Positions 4,725 to 38,099 are shown, counted from the first letter of the stretch. The stretch: DNA of 64,000 bases from an uncultured Candidatus Woesearchaeota archaeon (GCA_963835585.1 CAWIGF010000001.1:34184-98183), one strand, 5' to 3'. Translations and numbers: made by a program. The notes: generated by a model not told the origin, from the sequence alone.

Positions 4725-5075
4725 TTACTTTTTGAATTCTTTAATGACATCTGCAATCTTAGTTATGTTTTCGTTCGTTATCGTTACTGAATATGCGCTT
4801 AACACCAATTTTACATCTTCAGGATCAGCAGGAAGCACATCAAGCAACTTAGATATGTGCTCTGGCTTTAGTCTGGAAATGGCAAGCGCCTCTATTTTTT
4901 TCTTGAGCTCGTCTGCTTGCTTATGGCTGAGCTTCGCAAACTTTTGCAAGTACTCTTCTGTCTTGACTGCACGGAATCCCAATTCACCGTCACGTGCCTT
5001 GATATCCGCTAATGATTTCTGCAAATCATATATGCTGATTGGTTCCTCGTTTGTTATCTTGACGTTCATGATCAT
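4725..5075 (-). CDS. rpoF: DNA-directed RNA polymerase subunit Rpo4/F
   Basis: 116 aa. Central helical region (EYLQKFAKLSHKQADELKKKI) resembles archaeal RpoF. Conserved rpl21e-rpoF gene order. Confidence 0.7.
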   Translation of the reverse strand: MIMNVKITNEEPISIYDLQKSLADIKARDGELGFRAVKTEEYLQKFAKLSHKQADELKKKIEALAISRLKPEHISKLLDVLPADPEDVKLVLSAYSVTITNENITKIADVIKEFKK

Positions 5076-5368
5076 GCACCTTGGTATTTTCTCAAATGGA
5101 CTGGATGTACAATGAGGCTCTTCTTTTTTCCCATGTCCTGGATCTCAACGACATAGCATCGACCCTGCATGCCAGTGACCTTTGCTGGTTTTGCATGGAA
5201 TCGCCTGAAATACATGCCGCCGTGAATTGCCGGTTCTGCCTTAAGCAGGACCTTGTCCCCCTTGGCAAACTTCTGAAAGTATCTTGTGAGACTGAACTTG
5301 CCCCTATTTCGCGGAGCCTTGCCTAATATGTCCCGTGTTTTTTTCCTGCTTCCACCCATTCGTTTCAT
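5072..5368 (-). CDS. rpl21e: 50S ribosomal protein L21e
   Basis: 98 aa basic protein with L21e-like signature (GDKVLLKAEPAIHGGMYFRRFHAKPAKV). Stop/start overlap with rpoF. Confidence 0.85.
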   Translation of the reverse strand: MKRMGGSRKKTRDILGKAPRNRGKFSLTRYFQKFAKGDKVLLKAEPAIHGGMYFRRFHAKPAKVTGMQGRCYVVEIQDMGKKKSLIVHPVHLRKYQGA

Positions 5369-5692
5369 GATTTCTCTCCCTGTAATATCTAGCGACTTAA
5401 ACTACCCCTCTTTAAAAAGGATACGTACCTGTATTTATAAAAATAACGATTACATCGCTTTAAATAGTTTTCTATGGTGTTTTTAGACATAATACTAAAT
5501 AAAAAAACATCCGAAAAGACGCGAATTCCTGTTTGAATTCAGGAGCGATGATTCAAGAAACACACCTTGTTTGAATCAAAACAAATGGTGCGAAAAGTTT
5601 CGACTGAAAGAGTACGAAACGAAGACTCAAAATTCGTTTAGAAACATTTATATATTAAGAGAGGCACATTTTTTTAAAGACAAGGAGGAAGT

Positions 5693-6112
5693 TTGGGCAT
5701 GAGCATATTCCATAAAATTAAAAACAAATTGACTGGCGATTCTGATTTTGAAATTCCTGAGGAAGTTGACAAGGATTTCCTTCATGTCGATTCTGAACAA
5801 CCAAATAGCAAGGCAAAAGTGGTTTTGCGACCTTATATTCTTGAAGATTTTGACGATGTAAAACCAATCCTTGACTCATTGAGAGAGGGTTACACTATTC
5901 CTTTGATAAATATAAGACCTCTAAAGGACAAAGATCTTGTCGAATTGAAGCGAGCAATAAACAAATTGAAGAAAACATGCGATGCAATCGAGGGAGATAT
6001 CGCAGGATTCGGAGAAGACTGGATCGCAGTTGTTCCCGCATTCGCTCAAATCTACAGAGAGAAGAAGGAATTGCCTGTCGCCGAGAAAGCTGAGCGATAC
6101 GACAGATACTAA
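5693..6112 (+). CDS. sepF: SepF-like cell division protein (DUF552)
   Basis: C-terminal core (VVLRPYILEDFDDVKPILDSLREGYTIPLINI ... DIAGFGEDWIAVVP) has typical SepF topology. ftsZ is present in the window. Confidence 0.55.
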   Translation: MGMSIFHKIKNKLTGDSDFEIPEEVDKDFLHVDSEQPNSKAKVVLRPYILEDFDDVKPILDSLREGYTIPLINIRPLKDKDLVELKRAINKLKKTCDAIEGDIAGFGEDWIAVVPAFAQIYREKKELPVAEKAERYDRY

Positions 6113-6199
6113 TTTTTCTGAAAAATTTTATTTGACAGAAATTGTCATGATAATTTCCTAATCACAACTTTTATAAATTTAATTCTTGGTATTTCGCTT

Positions 6200-6751
6200 A
6201 TGGCAGACGAAGAACCTGAAGTATTGTCCGGACAACCGTGTCCTTTCTGTCACCAGAGCACGCTTACATTAACTGAACAAAAAAAAGAAATCCCTTACTT
6301 CGGAGAAGTCTATGTATTTTCCATGAGCTGTGAGAACTGCAAATACCACAAAGCGGACTTGGAATCTGTTCAGAATCATGAACCGACGCGATTCACTCTT
6401 GAAGTCTCGAGCGAGGAAGACATGAACATACGGATCGTAAAAGCATCAAGCGCGACTGTAAAAATTCCTCACGTCGTCACAATAGAGCCGGGAGAAGCTG
6501 CCAACGGATACATAACAAATGTGGAAGGGCTGTTGAAGCGAGTGAAGTATCAGATTGAAACCGCTCGGGATGCTGCAGAAGAAGATGAGGAGATCACTAA
6601 AGCAAAGAATCTTCTTAAAAAATTAGGCAGAGTAATGTGGGGACAGGAGAAAATAAAGATAATACTTGAGGATCCTGCTGGAAACTCGGCAATCATTTCT
6701 GAGAAAGCTGTCAAGGAACCTTTGAAAGGAAAGAAAAAAGAAGAATCATAA
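6200..6751 (+). CDS. ZPR1-type zinc-finger protein
   Basis: Two CxxC pairs (CPFC ... CENC) followed by a ZPR1-like beta-rich domain, 183 aa. Confidence 0.65.
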   Translation: MADEEPEVLSGQPCPFCHQSTLTLTEQKKEIPYFGEVYVFSMSCENCKYHKADLESVQNHEPTRFTLEVSSEEDMNIRIVKASSATVKIPHVVTIEPGEAANGYITNVEGLLKRVKYQIETARDAAEEDEEITKAKNLLKKLGRVMWGQEKIKIILEDPAGNSAIISEKAVKEPLKGKKKEES

Positions 6752-6763
6752 TCTCTAATTAAA

Positions 6764-6847
6764 GCGGGATTGCCGGAGTGGTCTAACGGGCGCGATTCAG
6801 GGTCGCGTGGCTTAGTGCCTTCGCGGGTTCGAATCCTGTGTCCCGCA
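6764..6847 (+). tRNA. tRNA-Leu(CAG), class II with long variable arm
   Basis: Hand-folded. Acceptor GCGGGAT/GTCCCGC, 3-bp D stem, anticodon stem CGCGA/TCGCG with loop TTCAGGG, long variable arm, T loop TTCGAAT. CCA not encoded. Confidence 0.75.
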
Positions 6848-6887: not shown

Positions 6888-6971
6888 GCGGGATTGACAG
6901 AGTGGTCAAATGTGCTTGGCTAAGGACCAAGTGGCTTAGTGCCTGCGCAGGTTCGAACCCTGCATCCCGCA
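6888..6971 (+). tRNA. tRNA-Leu(TAA), class II
   Basis: Hand-folded. Acceptor GCGGGAT, anticodon stem CTTGG/CCAAG with loop CTAAGGA, T arm GCAGG-TTCGAAC-CCTGC, 3' end ATCCCGCA. Confidence 0.75.
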
Positions 6972-7042
6972 TCGCACTATAAGTTACATGCGGCAGAAAA
7001 TAGCACTGGTTTGGAGTTATGGGTCAGTGCATGCATCCCGCA
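6972..7042 (+). repeat. tRNA-Leu 3'-flank unit ending in a second copy of the tRNA 3' terminus (GCATCCCGCA)
   Basis: Sequence ...ataagttacatgcgg..agcactggtttgga..gcatcccgca. A homologous unit follows repeat copy 2 at 10114-10184. Confidence 0.6.
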
Positions 7043-7132
7043 CGATTTATAAATCTTGGTTTTACTTTTTTCTAAATGCCAAAATCACAAAATATATAAA
7101 TACCAATATATTGGTATAAACATACCAAATAA

Positions 7133-7732
7133 ATGGTTAGCATGATAACAGACAAGAAATTGCGAATATTAAGCACATTCGGTCTCCAAGAAGTCCTGAC
7201 GTTCAAGGACATCAAGAAGCGGGCAAAGCAGAAGTCTAACAACGCCATACAGCTTGCTTTGAAAAACTTCATGAAACAAGGCATCATAGCGAAGCGCCAT
7301 GCAGGCAACGTATTGCTATATTCTCTTAATGCTGGCAATAGCACGGCACAGGCATACCTTGAAGTATTGAACAATGAGAAGATTTCATCATTACCTAAAG
7401 AAGCATTCATAATACAAGACAGGCTCTTGAAGAAGACAGCATTATTTATTCTGCTGGTCTTTGGAAGCTATGCGAAAAAAACAAACACCAAAACATCTGA
7501 CATTGATGTTGCGGTCATAACCGAGCAAAAGAAAGATATCGCTCCAATCTTGGAGACAATCAAACGACAAGAACTGCGACACATCGATTATCATATATTT
7601 ACGCAGGATGAATTCATAAGCATGCTTCATGAAGACCAGGAGAATCTTGGAAAGCAAATCTATAAAAACTGCCTAATCGTCTATGGGTACATCCCTTACA
7701 TCAATCTGGTGAGCAATGAAAGACATCGCTAA
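7133..7732 (+). CDS. Minimal nucleotidyltransferase (MNT) with N-terminal winged-helix domain; toxin-antitoxin-type component
   Basis: Nucleotidyltransferase motif GSYAKKTNTKTSDIDVAVI. Overlaps the downstream HEPN gene. Confidence 0.75.
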   Translation: MVSMITDKKLRILSTFGLQEVLTFKDIKKRAKQKSNNAIQLALKNFMKQGIIAKRHAGNVLLYSLNAGNSTAQAYLEVLNNEKISSLPKEAFIIQDRLLKKTALFILLVFGSYAKKTNTKTSDIDVAVITEQKKDIAPILETIKRQELRHIDYHIFTQDEFISMLHEDQENLGKQIYKNCLIVYGYIPYINLVSNERHR

Positions 7733-8195
7733 ACTATATTTGCAACGTGCAGAGAATGAACTGGCCGCGGCAGAGATATTGTATACCATTTCCAGTGATG
7801 CAAAGATTCAGAAAGAGCAGTTCAAGCTTGAAGAAAATTTTACATTTTATAGTGCGGTCATAAGTCATGCATACTACTCCATTTTCTATGCTGCAAAAGC
7901 AATCCTTGCAGAGAACAACATAAATACAACTGCTCCTGAAGTCCATAAGAAGACGCTTGATGCATTTGAAATACATCTTGTTAAAACGGGAAAACTTGAC
8001 GTTGACTTGCTGAAAATCTACAAGGAGTTAGTTGTCAGGGCCGATGATCTCTTAGGAATCTTTTCTTTGGAAAAAAAGAAAAGAGGAGAATTCACATATC
8101 AGAAATTGCCGCAGGCGAACAAGGAACCGGCAAAAGAATCGTTCGACAATGCATCGTCGTTCTTCAAGAACATCAGGAAAGTCCTTATTGGCTGA
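7716..8195 (+). CDS. HEPN domain protein, partner of the upstream MNT
   Basis: All-helical 159 aa protein. Overlaps the MNT gene by 17 nt, the classical MNT-HEPN pair arrangement. Confidence 0.65.
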   Translation: MKDIAKLYLQRAENELAAAEILYTISSDAKIQKEQFKLEENFTFYSAVISHAYYSIFYAAKAILAENNINTTAPEVHKKTLDAFEIHLVKTGKLDVDLLKIYKELVVRADDLLGIFSLEKKKRGEFTYQKLPQANKEPAKESFDNASSFFKNIRKVLIG

Positions 8196-8210
8196 TTTTT
8201 AATTAATCTA

Positions 8211-8402
8211 ATGGAGCAGACTAATGCATGCTACTTAATGGATAATGTTTCCTGTGAGTTCATACCAAGAAGATTCAGAAGGCGCTCTCATATTGTTACG
8301 TTTAAACTCAACGAAAAAGAATTCTTGCTATTAGAAAAACTGGCTCCACACGGCGAAAAATCATCTTATATCAGGGAGAGGGTTTTTCAAACAATTTCTT
8401 AG
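8211..8402 (+). CDS. Small ribbon-helix-helix-like protein
   Basis: Beta strand IVTFKL followed by two helices (EKEFLLLEKLA..SSYIRERV). 63 aa. Confidence 0.35.
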   Translation: MEQTNACYLMDNVSCEFIPRRFRRRSHIVTFKLNEKEFLLLEKLAPHGEKSSYIRERVFQTIS

Positions 8403-34113: not shown

Positions 34114-34185
34114 TTATCTCCTTTTCTTTGATTTTCTTCGTTTGGACTTCTTAGAAGCCTTTCTTTTTGCTCTTTTCTTAGCCAT
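34114..34185 (-). CDS. Tiny highly basic peptide (23 aa), possibly L41e-like
   Basis: Translation MAKKRAKRKASKKSKRRKSKKRR. GAGGTGA 8 nt upstream of the ATG. Confidence 0.25.
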   Translation of the reverse strand: MAKKRAKRKASKKSKRRKSKKRR

Positions 34186-34439
34186 TTGTTTTCACCTCAC
34201 GAAAAAATATTTCGTGTAATGCACGTTAATTATCCGAAGTATAAAAACATTTTCATTTCTTGTGCTGTTAGGTTAAAGGGATCTATTTAAAAAAATAGAA
34301 AAAAAGAGGAATTATTTTTTCCCCCAAAAATCAATAAATGCACTTACAACAAAACCAACTGCGGCTATGCCACAAGGTAAAGCTGCTGGTGGAAATGCTA
34401 CTGATGCACCCACCATAGTTACTGCGGCAAGAATCTTGT

Positions 34440-34751
34440 TTGTTCCTTTTTCAGTTTTTGATTCCATTAAATTCACCCCCAGAGATTATAGCTGAAATAA
34501 GTGTTAATAAAAGAATCGAAAACCGAAAGTTTTATTACTATGTATTGCTATGTAAAACCATGCAAGATGAAAATGTAACTGCAAATTTTGATTCTGTTTT
34601 TATTAAAAAAGTAGTAAAATCACGAGGGAGTTTTGTTATTTGGATTCCAAAAGATGAAGCAGAATTTTTACAAATTAAAGAAAGTTCATTTTTGAGAGTT
34701 GGATTAAAAAAACTTGAAAAAGAAAAAGATTTAAAAAAAGAAGGTTACTAA
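34440..34751 (+). CDS. Hypothetical protein inside the transposon
   Basis: ORF of 103 aa. The true start may be the internal Met (MQDENV). Confidence 0.3.
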   Translation: MFLFQFLIPLNSPPEIIAEISVNKRIENRKFYYYVLLCKTMQDENVTANFDSVFIKKVVKSRGSFVIWIPKDEAEFLQIKESSFLRVGLKKLEKEKDLKKEGY

Positions 34752-34957
34752 AATGTCTATAGAGGTGATATTTTTGTCAGAAAAGGGTGTGACCGGTGGT
34801 CATAATTTTAATGCCCCTTTACTATTTACGAGTGAAGATATTAGCATAAGATTTATATATATGTTAAAATTACCTCTATTGTGGGGGATGCAGTTTTAGT
34901 CAAAAAAATAACTCCACATGACAGAACTATCCACTTCGCTTTCACGAACAAAAAAAC

Positions 34958-35031
34958 TGGGCGTCCGCCGAGATTTGAACTCAGATCTTCGGCGTACAAG
35001 ACCGAAATCCTACGATTGGACGACGGACGCC
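34958..35031 (-). tRNA. tRNA-Thr(TGT)
   Basis: Hand-folded on the minus strand. Acceptor GCGTCCG/CGGACGC, anticodon stem TCGGT/GCCGA with loop CTTGTAC, T arm CTGAG-TTCAAAT-CTCGG, followed by CCA. Confidence 0.65.
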
Positions 35032-35049
35032 ATATTTATTCGAAAAAAG

Positions 35050-35123
35050 TAGGCGGCAGGGGACTTGAACCCCCGATCTCCAATTTAGCGGACTGGCGAT
35101 CTATCCAACTAATCTAGCCGCCC
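35050..35123 (-). tRNA. tRNA with apparent GCT anticodon but class I architecture (short 5 nt variable loop)
   Basis: Minus strand: GGGCGGC-TA-GATT-AGTTGGATA-GATC-G-CCAGT-CCGCTAA-ATTGG-AGATC-GGGGG-TTCAAGT-CCCCT-GCCGCCT-A. C at position 33 is unusual. Confidence 0.5.
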
Positions 35124-35386
35124 TTTTTCTTTTTTTCAGGAATTTAGAATCAACTCTAAATCCCCCATTCACTCGTCGCGTGAGCTACTTAAACATTTTC
35201 ACACATCGGTTCGTGCAAATAATCCCTACTGGTTTGCCCTCGCCGAATCGGCGAAACTATTTTTGTGAATTGTGATACTCGTGAGTTGTGAATAGGCAAA
35301 CAGTAGGCGTTTCGTTTAGAAATCGCCATGCTGTTTAAGCATTTTTTGCTTGAAAATATAAAATCATACTGAATTCAAAAATGTTT

Positions 35387-36307
35387 CTAATTATTCTTTT
35401 TGACATAATCCCGACAAAACTTCTGTTCAGAAGCCAATCTAATCAAACCCAACCACCTATTCTCGCCTGTTTCAAGTCTTAATCCTGCTAATTCGCAAGG
35501 AACTCTTCCTGTTGTTGTGTGAGCTTCAATAAAGTTATGCTGTAAAACAATTCCCTGCATTAAAATAGGAGCTGACCAAAGCGCTTTTAACGTTCTAAAA
35601 TTTCTTACTCTGTCTTTTATCTTGCTGAAAACTGTTTCAATTCTAACATTATGAACTTTTGATTTTCTGACATTATTTACTCTATGTTCTACCTTAAGTC
35701 TTGAGCCACCATGGTCAACACGTGTTGCTCTATTAGAAGAGAAAATTCTTCTCATGGCTTTTGGATAGAATAATGCGGCATCAGTTTGAATATATCTTGG
35801 CAATCCATTCTTTGTTGTCTTTTTTAAGAAATCTACTGCTTCCTCAACATTGGCAGTAATGCTATAGTGTATTCCTGAAATAAATCTCGTTCCATAATCA
35901 ATAGCACACCAAAATTTATCTTTTCTGCCTTCGCAGTCCAATTCGGTTTCATCGGCATAAAAATTACCTTCAAGAATTGGTTTTAAGTTATCAGTATATT
36001 TCTGAACTTTCAAAACATACTTTCTACACCAATCCAATACGCTTACATGAGAAGCATTATGTGGGTAATGCCTTCTGAAATGATTTCTTACTTTCCTGCT
36101 TGAAAGATTGCTGAAATAAAGGTCTATGCCGTCAGTAATCTTTTCAGGGCTATTTCTCATTCTAAAGAAACCATCATCTTTTACAAAAGCAGTTTTACAA
36201 GATTTACATTCATATCTCTGTATTAAACCCCTATTCTGTGTCTTTCTCATTCCTCGTTTCTTTATGTCTTTGCTTTGACATTTTGGGCATTTTGTTTGGT
36301 TTTCCAT
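35387..36307 (-). CDS. DDE transposase with N-terminal C2C2 zinc finger (IS1595/IS1-like)
   Basis: N-terminal CPKCQS...CKSCK. Central and C-terminal acidic residues. 306 aa. Sits inside the IR-bounded element with 8 bp TSD. Confidence 0.75.
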   Translation of the reverse strand: MENQTKCPKCQSKDIKKRGMRKTQNRGLIQRYECKSCKTAFVKDDGFFRMRNSPEKITDGIDLYFSNLSSRKVRNHFRRHYPHNASHVSVLDWCRKYVLKVQKYTDNLKPILEGNFYADETELDCEGRKDKFWCAIDYGTRFISGIHYSITANVEEAVDFLKKTTKNGLPRYIQTDAALFYPKAMRRIFSSNRATRVDHGGSRLKVEHRVNNVRKSKVHNVRIETVFSKIKDRVRNFRTLKALWSAPILMQGIVLQHNFIEAHTTTGRVPCELAGLRLETGENRWLGLIRLASEQKFCRDYVKKNN

Positions 36308-36414
36308 GTTATATACCTTATTAGTATATTATTATATAAGTATAGCTTATATATAAATCTTACGTTTCTAGTAATATACGAAAGATTTATATACCATATT
36401 AGTATATATGATAT

Positions 36415-36565
36415 TATGGGATTAATAGAAATAAAGCAAAAAGGCTTTAAATGTGAACGTTGTGGTCACGAATGGGTACCACACGACATAAAGCAAGAAC
36501 CAACAGTATGCCCAAAATGTAAGTCACCTTATTGGAATAAACCAAGACAAAAGAAAAAGGATTAG
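36415..36565 (+). CDS. Small zinc-ribbon protein (49 aa) translationally coupled to the DNA methyltransferase
   Basis: Translation MGLIEIKQKGFKCERCGHEWVPHDIKQEPTVCPKCKSPYWNKPRQKKKD. Its stop is immediately followed by the methyltransferase ATG. Confidence 0.45.
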
Positions 36566-37336
36566 ATGAAAACAGAACACAAGATAGTTTACGGGGATTG
36601 TTTAGAAGAATTAAAGAAACTACCTGATGAATCAGTAGACTTGATTTTTGCAGATCCACCTTATGGACTAGCAAAGAAAACAGGATTAGACTCACCATAT
36701 AGCAAACACGTAACGCTTCAAGAAGCATGGGATATTTTTTCAAAAGATGATTTTTTTAAATTTAATATAGAATGGATAACAGAATGTTGGCGAGTTTTGA
36801 AGCATGGTGGCAGCTTCTGGGTATGTGGTTCATTCCATAATATTTACCAACTAGGATTTATTTTACAGCATTTAGATGCTAAAATAAATAATAGCATTGT
36901 TTGGTTTAAGCCAAATGCACAGCCAAATATAACATGCAGAATGTTCACAGAAAGCACAGAGCATTTAATATGGGCTGTTAAAAATCATTCCAAAACAAAA
37001 TGGACATTTAACTACGAAGATACCAAAAACAAGATTTTTGATAGCATAAATCCAAAAGGAAAACAAACTAGAAATGTCTGGAGTATTGCTCTTACATCGC
37101 CAAAAGAAAAATGGGCAGGAGTTCATCCCACACAGAAGCCGATTGAATTACTCAGAAGGATTATTTTATCATCTTCAAAACCAAATGACTTAGTTCTTGA
37201 TCCTTTTGTCGGCTCTGGCACAACTTCTGTAGTGGCTAAACTGCTTGGGAGAAATTCAATAGGTATAGACAATAACAAAAAATATCTAGAGATAGCAAAG
37301 AAAAGACTAGCACAGGAAACTTTACTTCTTAGGTAA
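36566..37336 (+). CDS. Type II DNA methyltransferase, beta-class (N4-cytosine or N6-adenine)
   Basis: Motif IV DLIFADPPYG precedes motif I VLDPFVGSGTT (beta-class order). Confidence 0.85.
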   Translation: MKTEHKIVYGDCLEELKKLPDESVDLIFADPPYGLAKKTGLDSPYSKHVTLQEAWDIFSKDDFFKFNIEWITECWRVLKHGGSFWVCGSFHNIYQLGFILQHLDAKINNSIVWFKPNAQPNITCRMFTESTEHLIWAVKNHSKTKWTFNYEDTKNKIFDSINPKGKQTRNVWSIALTSPKEKWAGVHPTQKPIELLRRIILSSSKPNDLVLDPFVGSGTTSVVAKLLGRNSIGIDNNKKYLEIAKKRLAQETLLLR

Positions 37337-37855
37337 TGGAAGCCCTAGAAATTCCAATGGTAATTCTTCAAAGAAATAATGACAATCAACTGATTTAATA
37401 TATTCTAAAACATCTTTATATTCCGCTGATTTAAACCATTTGCTTAAAATATAAACATATTCAATCTTAATTCCTGTATTTGAAAATAGTTTAATATATT
37501 CCTTCTTTTTAAAATCGCAGGTTTGTAGCTTTTCATCAACAGATCCTGCAACCTCTTGAAACTTCATTTCTATTATGAAAAGAGTCTTAGCTGAAAGAAC
37601 AAAGATTGTTTCATCAGGTAGAAGTTTTTTTGAAAGTCTTGACTTTGCATCATAAATTTTCAATTTAAGACCTAACAACACATCATATACTTCATGTTTC
37701 TTGTAAAATGAAGCAATTAATTTATCATTAAAGAATAAGTCATTTCCAGCAACTTTATACCCATTCAATTTACTAAAAACAGTTCTAAGGTCTAATCTTT
37801 GCTCAAATTTTAATCCAGACAGGGTATTTGATCCCCCTTCACCACCACTAATCAT
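37322..37855 (-). CDS. Putative type II restriction endonuclease (PD-(D/E)xK-like)
   Basis: Convergent with the methyltransferase, 15 nt 3' overlap. PD..ExK-like PDETIFV...IIEMKFQ. Confidence 0.5.
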   Translation of the reverse strand: MISGGEGGSNTLSGLKFEQRLDLRTVFSKLNGYKVAGNDLFFNDKLIASFYKKHEVYDVLLGLKLKIYDAKSRLSKKLLPDETIFVLSAKTLFIIEMKFQEVAGSVDEKLQTCDFKKKEYIKLFSNTGIKIEYVYILSKWFKSAEYKDVLEYIKSVDCHYFFEELPLEFLGLPLPKK

Positions 37856-38099
37856 ATTTAAGCAAAAGAATAAGAACTATTTAAATAGATCCCTTTAACC
37901 TAACAGCTCATCATTTCTAAAATTTTTGTGAAAAGTTTTTTTAATTTCTACAAAACAAAACATCGTGACAAAAAAAAGTTTAATAAAAAAATATCTCGTC
38001 GTAAAATAAATGAAATAAAATTAAAAAAACAAAATTCACTTTTTGAATGTGATTTGAAAATACGAGCATTTAAAAATAAACAACACAAAATAAGAAAAT

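Follow-up and report, generated by a model that had tools for sequence, protein, structure and literature searches.

The DNA analysed here (the window) is a stretch of 64,000 nucleotides from an uncultured Candidatus Woesearchaeota archaeon (GCA_963835585.1 CAWIGF010000001.1:34184-98183). Positions 34261-37910 of the window are a transposon of 3650 base pairs (bp) bounded by one pair of terminal inverted repeats. A preliminary description made from the same sequence had reported a cargo transposon with a complete restriction-modification system and two tRNA genes. We confirm a single transposon insertion whose cargo is a type II restriction-modification pair, complete by appearance, together with the two tRNA genes. 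Its principal features are as follows (aa, amino acids):

34253-34260, unstranded: left target-site duplication, 8 bp, TCATTTCT, identical to 37911-37918
34261-34291, plus strand: left terminal inverted repeat, 31 bp, TGTGCTGTTAGGTTAAAGGGATCTATTTAAA, complementary to 37880-37910 at 30 of 31 bases
34959-35030, minus strand: tRNA-Thr, anticodon UGU (ARAGORN; Rfam 56.6 bits)
35049-35123, minus strand: non-canonical tRNA, anticodon GCU (ARAGORN; Rfam 55.1 bits)
35387-36307, minus strand: DDE transposase, 306 aa, with an N-terminal zinc ribbon (CxxC…CxxC) and an IS6-type catalytic domain (Pfam PF13610, NCBIfam IS6, tblastn)
36416-36565, plus strand: zinc-ribbon protein, 49 aa, C..C…CPKCKSPYWNKPR (Pfam Zn_ribbon_8, weak)
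36566-37336, plus strand: beta-class, CcrM-like N6-adenine (or N4-cytosine) DNA methyltransferase, 256 aa (Pfam, NCBIfam, PDB)
37322-37855, minus strand: putative type II restriction endonuclease, 177 aa, PD-(D/E)xK fold, convergent with the methyltransferase gene and overlapping its 3' end by 15 bp
37880-37910, minus strand: right terminal inverted repeat, 31 bp, reverse complement TGAGCTGTTAGGTTAAAGGGATCTATTTAAA, 30 of 31 bases in agreement with the left repeat
37911-37918, unstranded: right target-site duplication, 8 bp, TCATTTCT, identical to the left copy

Ends of the element and insertion site

The inverted repeats with their single mismatch and the perfect 8 bp direct repeats on both outer sides stand as first described, and the inverted repeats are not frequent generic sequence: with up to 3 mismatches, a 28-nucleotide (nt) repeat core occurs at two sites only in the 64-kilobase (kb) window, and 100 shuffles of the window gave zero matches to it. 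In the left repeat, the tip common to the family, TGnGCTGTTAGGT, lies outside and a TATA-box-like TATTTAAA lies inside, pointing inward. The right repeat has an inner TATTTAAATA approximately 30 nt upstream of the nuclease ATG, which is likely to be the promoter for the nuclease gene; the inner part of both repeats resembles an inward-facing archaeal TATA box. A likeness between the right repeat and the promoter of a homologous nuclease gene (contig L059) was limited to the TATA box and approximately 8 nt, and was taken as chance.

The genes that flank the element are archaeal, and encode Cbf5, ribosomal proteins L31e and S19e and uracil-DNA glycosylase (UDG). The insertion point is intergenic, between the UDG gene (with a small basic open reading frame [ORF] beside it) and a gene for a 175 aa membrane protein that has homologues in Nanoarchaeota/Nanoarchaeia metagenome-assembled genomes (MAGs). 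Three related MAG contigs (L150, L151 and L152) retain the gene order S19e-L31e-Cbf5-UDG-175 aa gene, and in them the distance from UDG to the 175 aa gene is approximately 252 bp, compared with 4068 bp in the window; the orthologous locus has no transposase, restriction-modification genes or tRNAs. When the window minus the element was aligned to these loci, a 23 aa basic ORF and its terminator were found to be conserved, and the insertion fell in the intergenic DNA between the two promoters. We read the three contigs as the empty orthologous locus in distant relatives and not as the exact empty site.

The 23 aa ORF (MAKKRAKRKASKKSKRRKSKKRR; 34114-34185, minus strand) is extremely basic, has a GGTG ribosome-binding site and a hairpin downstream, and is conserved in L150 and L152, where its position is unchanged. 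The transposon sits approximately 70 bp upstream of its start codon. The ORF could encode a small ribosomal protein of the L41e type that has escaped annotation. A PIN/VapB pair is also found nearby in the host.

The arrangement at the locus bears on the idea that the repeats stem from two separate events, or that they form a pseudo-compound structure around ordinary host genes, given that the pseudo-compound transposon is a classical vehicle by which IS6 elements mobilize genes (PMC7986276). We give this idea almost no credence, and it is strongly disfavoured: a single transposase copy is present, the repeats are inverted and are not direct copies of an insertion sequence (IS), the identical outer 8 bp duplication indicates a single insertion, the relatives' orthologous locus is without any of these genes, and the 67 relatives described below have the same single-unit architecture.

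Transposase

The catalytic domain of the transposase is most similar to that of the IS6 family. Pfam assigns it to DDE_Tnp_IS240 (PF13610, IS6 family) with 46.8 bits against a cut-off of 27, and the best NCBIfam match is the IS6 transposase model, with 77 bits over model positions 3-201 of 202 (IS1 scores 34 bits). In a tblastn comparison with 72,556 plasmids, all annotated matches listed are IS6-family transposases (one place is unannotated), and identity to annotated IS6 transposases is 23-25% over residues ~50-286, with E values down to 9e-13. When 37 transposase homologues were aligned, D119, D176 and E224 proved invariant.

The preliminary description had placed the element in the IS1595 family, as a transporter IS with passenger genes. 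Elements of that family reportedly (Siguier et al. in 2009) have 8 bp duplications, an N-terminal zinc finger and passenger genes. The window transposase has a CxxC…CxxC motif, and its zinc ribbon is the one part that resembles the IS1/IS1595 type: the N-terminal 40 residues score 27.7 bits, against a cut-off of 28, with NF050000, the NCBIfam model of the IS1/IS1595 N-terminal zinc-binding domain (the Pfam match of the N-terminus to Zn_ribbon_InsA is weak, at 18.6 against a cut-off of 26.1). This motif is, however, common to IS1, IS1595 and some IS6 members. The 8 bp duplication is real but does not discriminate, being equally typical of IS6, a family with 8 bp direct target repeats (PMC7986276). 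No match to an IS1595 catalytic domain was obtained in either Pfam (E <= 0.01) or NCBIfam (E <= 0.1), and IS6 models cover the catalytic region from one end to the other, the only annotated transposases that align with it being those of IS6. Membership in IS1595 is thus largely refuted, and we consider it very improbable. The element is an IS with passenger genes that is related to IS6: the structural reading of the preliminary description was right and its family label was wrong.

A lineage of related elements in DPANN archaea

A protein search with the transposase returned 832 homologues at E <= 1e-5. The best 120 of the 832 are 60-71% identical to it, and those that are named are labelled Woesearchaeota or other DPANN. 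Loci were fetched from species-representative genomes (55) and from metagenomes (80). A motif-free search for inverted repeats, anchored on the position of the transposase gene, found the same tip, TGAGCTGT[T/A]A[A/G]GT…, in most loci; a motif-seeded repeat search with a check for duplications then gave 73 complete elements, 67 of them non-redundant. Every one of the 67 has a perfect 8 bp duplication and the repeat tip TGAGCTGTWAAGT…. Their lengths range from 1619 to 7108 bp (median 2918) and, since the transposase gene takes up approximately 0.9 kb and all elements are longer than this, every element carries extra DNA. The target duplications are approximately 70% A+T, with C at position 1 in 32/67 and G at position 8 in 26/67, which suggests a weakly palindromic target preference, C-W6-G.

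Locus L057 contains, at 6911-8329, a 1419 bp copy in which the transposase gene is reduced to its C-terminal portion; the family repeats are intact and the duplication (CAAAAAAC) is perfect, and the copy is a non-autonomous deletion derivative. Extra repeat tips of the family type were seen near the main element at L010 (5164/5463 and 10999/15483), L009 (9925-12046), L019 and L039. These tips suggest nested, tandem or solo ends, although the 3-mismatch motif used is prone to noise, and a duplication was found for none of the tips.

Viral contigs gave 0 matches to the repeat core and no relatives of the transposase, so nothing points to a virus that carries the element. A search for papers that describe this lineage found none, a result that is limited to the searchable literature and is not proof of novelty. 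The lineage is widespread in DPANN archaea (Woesearchaeota/Nanoarchaeota), and is apparently a large, undescribed group of IS6-like cargo transposons.

Cargo of the lineage

The ORFs of the 67 elements were clustered, and representatives of 104 cargo clusters were scanned against Pfam. A small AbrB/MazE-like gene (53-82 aa) is present in 42/67 elements and can be described as a near-core accessory gene: in 41 of the 42 it is upstream of and divergent from the transposase gene, and 35 of these copies are no more than 250 bp away from it. The copy in L030 matches the Pfam family MazE_antitoxin with an E value of 3e-7. Second in frequency comes a beta-class N6/N4 methyltransferase, which 14 elements carry. 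Proteins with the methyltransferase motif [DNS]PP[YFW] occur in 16 elements and a C5 methyltransferase in one more, giving at least 17/67 elements with a methyltransferase. Five named restriction-enzyme families are represented among the Pfam matches (the ThaI, Tsp45I, MvaI/BcnI, BsaWI and Bsp6I nucleases), together with Eco57I/MmeI-type fused enzymes, the type III Res helicase (ResIII), D12 and C5 methyltransferases, and Fic/DOC and NYN domains.

Restriction-modification is therefore recurrent cargo of the lineage and is not peculiar to the window copy. tRNAs that pass the Rfam threshold are found in 2/67 elements (the window copy and L030). The preliminary description had called the pairing of restriction-modification genes with tRNAs unusual; the combination is unique to the window copy among the elements examined, but its restriction-modification half is not.

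Restriction-modification genes of the window copy

The beta-class methyltransferase and the convergent, putative PD-(D/E)xK nuclease that the preliminary description named are both present. The methyltransferase matches N6_N4_Mtase in Pfam (E 7.6e-60), CcrM in NCBIfam (247 bits) and the CcrM structure 6pbd in the PDB (E 7.5e-59). It has the motifs DPPY (residues 30-33) and FVGSGTT (near the C-terminus), and is without the C-terminal domain of CcrM. Genes 75-78% identical to that of the window are found in L005, L039 and L121; in L005 and L039 a related element contains the gene, whose partner there is a different protein of 173 aa.

The 177 aa nuclease has a weak Pfam match to PDDEXK_11, and no sequence relative of it was found in the PDB. 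Its family comprises over 6000 proteins of approximately 175 aa, P80-D81…E96-x-K98 is invariant across its homologues, and its predicted fold is restriction-enzyme-like. The homologues adjoin a DNA methyltransferase gene in all three contig groups examined, the partner being of the D12 class in L059-L063 and of the N6_N4 class in L064-L069. Contigs L067-L069 contain a methyltransferase-plus-nuclease module with 68% DNA identity to that of the window (~5001-6337, between genes for prefoldin and IF-2B) in a chromosomal setting with no transposase nearby; the module therefore also spreads, or persists, independently of the transposon. From these features, the restriction-modification pair of the window looks intact and of type II.

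The most depleted 4-mer palindromes in the window are GATC (observed/expected 0.65) and GGCC (0.66), and the most depleted interrupted 5-mer is ACNGT (0.72). Such motifs may be the footprint of present or past restriction systems; they are a hint only, and no specificity is claimed.

Zinc-ribbon gene, control region and small ORFs

The small zinc-ribbon protein of the preliminary description is present as a 49 aa ORF, and its TAG stop directly abuts the methyltransferase ATG in the same frame (36563-36568, …GAT TAG ATG…). Read-through of the TAG would yield a zinc-ribbon/methyltransferase fusion; otherwise, this is a stop-start coupling arrangement. The gene takes the place, upstream of the transposase gene and divergent from it, that the AbrB-like gene has in most relatives, and its product may regulate the operon. 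Homologous zinc ribbons were found in three other elements, fused to a Fic domain in two of them (L014 and L056). In L014, a C..C…CP.C.SPYWNKPR zinc ribbon forms the N-terminus of a Fic/DOC protein inside a related transposon (7201-7818, minus strand), and the Fic protein of L056 (7014-7502, plus strand) clusters with this fusion. The zinc ribbon may be a portable module that is joined to different cargo effectors.

Three further features were noted in the element:

34312-34476, minus strand: small hydrophobic ORF, 54 aa, reality uncertain (from the ORF list; no Pfam match)
34560-34751, plus strand: 63 aa ORF with an AbrB-like 'VIWIPKDEAEFLQIK' motif (from the ORF list)
36308-36415, unstranded: AT-rich divergent control region, with a 21 bp direct repeat (36309-36329/36387-36407) and a 16 bp inverted repeat (36350-36365/36378-36393)

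The control region is likely to be, from its position and repeats, a divergent promoter/operator for the transposase gene and the zinc-ribbon/methyltransferase operon. The 63 aa ORF may be a diverged relative of the AbrB/MazE-like gene of the lineage, although this is not proven: an hhalign comparison with the family profile brings the motif into register but falls short of significance (probability 3.7%, E 0.011), and the ORF was not accepted as a member of the AbrB family. A terminator-like hairpin with a T-run lies just inside the left repeat at 34325-34305.

Proposed mode of transposition and maintenance

We are confident that 34261-37910 is one autonomous IS6-like DDE transposon, belonging to a DPANN-wide lineage, that ferries restriction-modification cargo and tRNAs. 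Going by IS6/DDE chemistry, the transposase would use its zinc ribbon and IS6-type DDE domain to recognize inverted repeats of approximately 25-31 bp with the tip TGAGCTGTWAAGT. 3'-OH strand transfer into a target cut with an 8 bp stagger, as expected from the biology of IS6 (PMC7986276), followed by gap repair, would then give the TCATTTCT duplication. Movement could proceed either via cointegrate formation and resolution or by simple insertion (PMC7986276); the presence of single copies with duplications is compatible with both routes. The zinc-ribbon and methyltransferase genes form one operon divergent from the transposase gene, the nuclease is apparently transcribed from the TATA-like sequence in the right repeat, and the two tRNA genes, with a leader-like spacer, lie downstream of the transposase gene. 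If it behaves as restriction-modification systems generally do, the restriction-modification pair would shield the host from unmethylated DNA and would stabilize the element by post-segregational killing (addiction); in return, the transposon would lend the restriction-modification genes intragenomic, plasmid- or virus-borne mobility.

Several observations count against this interpretation or against a closer tie to IS6. The NCBIfam IS6 score of 77 bits is below the equivalog cut-off of 125. The repeat tip of the lineage starts with TG, and that of classical IS6 elements with GG. The elements of the lineage are 2-8 times the length of the IS6 members in ISfinder (PMC7986276). Because of the score, the TG tip and the greater length, strict IS6 membership of the lineage is arguable, and because the score is under the equivalog cut-off we assign the transposase to a divergent, IS6-like lineage and not to the IS6 family in the strict sense. 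GANTC avoidance, which is expected from a CcrM/HinfI-like methyltransferase, was not seen (observed/expected 0.87 in the window). At the empty locus in L150-L152, the 175 aa protein is only 58% identical and the intergenic DNA has diverged. The search for further copies or an empty site that was suggested in the preliminary description was successful in part: it recovered this orthologous locus in three relatives, but neither a second copy of this exact element nor the exact-sequence empty site, which would read …ACATTTTCATTTCTAAAATTTTTG…, was found. Exact-protein look-ups of the transposase and nuclease returned no contig, and look-ups with the flanking proteins and the methyltransferase returned only short contigs from the same sample (L001-L003), with nothing beyond the window.

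These short-read contigs (Logan ERR10755942), which are from the same organism, have breaks inside the element at ~36099-36128 and 37533-37654. Differences between strains in that sample, or additional partial copies of the element, could account for the breaks.

tRNA genes and spacer

Both tRNA genes of the preliminary description are present, and both score well above the gathering threshold of 29 bits for the Rfam tRNA family RF00005, although the second is not an ordinary tRNA. tRNA-Thr(UGU) has a D-loop without the GG pair, a discriminator C and a T-run after the gene; the discriminator is U in the chromosomal DPANN tRNA-Thr genes of L012 and L016. The second tRNA has the anticodon loop CCGCUAA (that is, C33), a variable region of 5 nt, A73 and a G1-U72 pair, and its Ser label in ARAGORN comes from the anticodon alone. 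A tRNA-Ser has the long variable arm of class II tRNAs and, in archaea, G73; given the 5 nt variable region and A73, we rejected the second gene as a normal tRNA-Ser. Both tRNAs have an intact cloverleaf and are followed by T-runs, and their Rfam scores are close to those of two tRNA-Leu genes of the host.

The host tRNA-Leu genes are adjacent (6764-6847 and 6888-6971, plus strand), with anticodons CAG and AAG. Archaea normally use a GAG leucine tRNA, and A34 is unexpected. With the AAG tRNA-Leu at hand, A34 tRNAs may be usual in this archaeal lineage, a point of relevance to the ACU tRNA of L030 described next.

The element in L030 has a tRNA-Thr(UGU) beside a short-arm tRNA (7480-7553) with an ACU anticodon, A73 and G37. 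The sequences of this pair are unrelated to those of the window pair, and the two genes are in reversed order and on the other side of the transposase gene. This recurrence of the unusual pair argues for selection, as opposed to accident. Both L030 tRNAs (7402-7555) have G37 despite anticodons that read ANN codons, and the tRNA-Thr has A54 in its T-loop; tRNAs that read ANN codons normally have A37. ARAGORN tRNA calls in L091 and L079 were under the Rfam threshold and were dropped.

The tRNAs are separated from the transposase gene by a further feature:

35124-35386, minus strand: spacer between the transposase gene and the tRNAs (composition, RNA fold)

This spacer had been described as GC-rich with a perfect hairpin. 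The hairpin, TCGCCGAATCGGCGA, is found at 35240-35254, but the spacer is only moderately G+C-rich (0.37-0.45, compared with 0.26-0.35 for most of the rest of the element). Its predicted RNA fold is somewhat better than that of shuffled sequences (z = -3.5). Searches of the spacer found no Rfam family (E <= 5), no intron-containing or third tRNA, and no DNA homologue among the fetched loci. It may be a leader/promoter region for the tRNAs or a captured relic of the donor genome.

The tRNA module as a whole is most likely a fragment captured from a G+C-richer donor. There is a substantial chance, though one short of even, that the tRNAs and spacer are a passive, non-functional piece of a former host, picked up by aberrant transposition (for example, using a surrogate end). 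The higher G+C content of the segment, its occurrence as tRNAs in just 2/67 elements and the non-canonical traits (C33 in one tRNA, no GG in the D-loop of the other) all agree with such an origin. So does codon usage: element genes show no meaningful excess of ACA or AGY codons over host genes and thus no special need for these tRNAs, and this result gives no support to the spread of decoding capacity proposed in the preliminary description. On the other hand, scores of 55-57 bits are as good as those of the host tRNAs, the cloverleaves are intact and T-runs follow, and a Thr(UGU) plus short-arm NCU pair of unrelated sequence and reversed order in an independent element, L030, is unlikely under random capture.

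The same recurrence in two unrelated elements would be explained if the pair were functional, either by replacing host tRNAs attacked by toxins (anticodon nucleases or PIN/VapC) or by altering AGY decoding through charging by an enzyme other than seryl-tRNA synthetase, e.g. arginyl-tRNA synthetase (ArgRS). Bacterial ArgRS identity elements are C35/U36/A20, and both odd tRNAs have A20, C35 and U36 along with A73 and a short variable region; the PIN/VapB pair near the element fits the toxin version. Nevertheless, the identity rules are those of bacterial systems, and related tRNAs were not found in viral collections: the anticodon arms of both window tRNAs had 0 matches in viral contigs, and a blastn comparison with phage genomes yielded, for the odd tRNAs, either nothing or a weak match without annotation. 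We consider a functional pair unlikely, and ArgRS charging of the short-arm NCU tRNA, by analogy with bacteria, is only a lead.

A more inclusive proposal would join these strands. Under it, an undescribed and abundant DPANN lineage of IS6-like elements, with a core made up of the zinc-ribbon DDE transposase and the AbrB/MazE-like gene, would be a dedicated shuttle for type II restriction-modification and other defence/toxin genes, and a minority of its members would carry a functional Thr(UGU) plus short-arm NCU tRNA pair that replaces toxin-cleaved host tRNAs or inserts a residue other than serine at AGY codons. Taken as a single statement, this is slightly less probable again than a functional tRNA pair.

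Significance

The means by which restriction-modification systems pass from genome to genome have long been in question, and cases inside a self-sufficient transposon are rarely documented: a systematic survey (PMC2853133) recorded only inverted-repeat units without a transposase, none of them archaeal. The lineage described here is autonomous, has clean ends and duplications, and repeatedly carries different restriction-modification systems, making it a concrete and testable vehicle for restriction-modification mobility. Its hosts are DPANN archaea, which have tiny genomes, depend on hosts and have poorly known mobile elements. The IS6 group, best known for compact elements that spread antibiotic resistance, is extended by these relatives to cargo-carrying forms, and the 67 natural variants are a ready set for study of the end and target requirements of the transposase. 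The non-canonical tRNA pair borne by a transposon could bear on conflict that targets tRNAs or on decoding.

Comparison with known systems

Among the closest known systems are IS6 elements (IS26/IS240), including the archaeal clades and the zinc-finger clade h (PMC7986276). Like them, the present lineage has a DDE domain, an 8 bp duplication, a single transposase ORF and short terminal repeats with a CTGTT motif, and some IS6 members also have an N-terminal zinc finger. IS6 members in ISfinder are compact, at 0.7-0.9 kb with a maximum of ~1.76 kb, and only ISDsp3 carries a passenger gene (PMC7986276), whereas elements of this lineage are 1.6-7.1 kb and always have extra genes. The repeats of the lineage are longer (~25-31 bp) and start with TG, its transposase is 23-25% identical to annotated IS6 transposases and under the NCBIfam cut-off, and an AbrB/MazE-like accessory gene is part of its core. 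Passenger genes are not a topic of a 2026 survey of archaeal IS.

Transporter IS (tIS) of the IS1595 family resemble the lineage in combining a single transposase with passengers inside one repeat pair, and in the zinc ribbon and 8 bp duplication. They differ in that the catalytic domain here is IS6-like, and is not that of IS1595 or IS1, and in that the cargo here consists mostly of restriction-modification and other defence-type genes. The 'ISMhu11' subgroup of IS1 in ISfinder (900-4600 bp) is a possible precedent that could not be confirmed, a literature search having come up empty.

With respect to cargo, the nearest parallel is provided by the units described in Xanthomonas oryzae by Furuta, Abe & Kobayashi in 2010, in which restriction-modification genes lie within imperfect inverted repeats with an 8 bp duplication and a recognizable empty site (PMC2853133). 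Those units have no transposase, so that mobilization would have to be in trans or by some unknown route, and no archaeal case passed the filters of that study; here, the transposase is internal and the pattern is lineage-wide.

Finally, phages, plasmids and integrative elements also carry their own, somewhat non-canonical tRNA genes. Unlike these carriers, the window element is a small DDE transposon, and one of its tRNAs has a class I (short-arm) body together with an anticodon that reads AGY.

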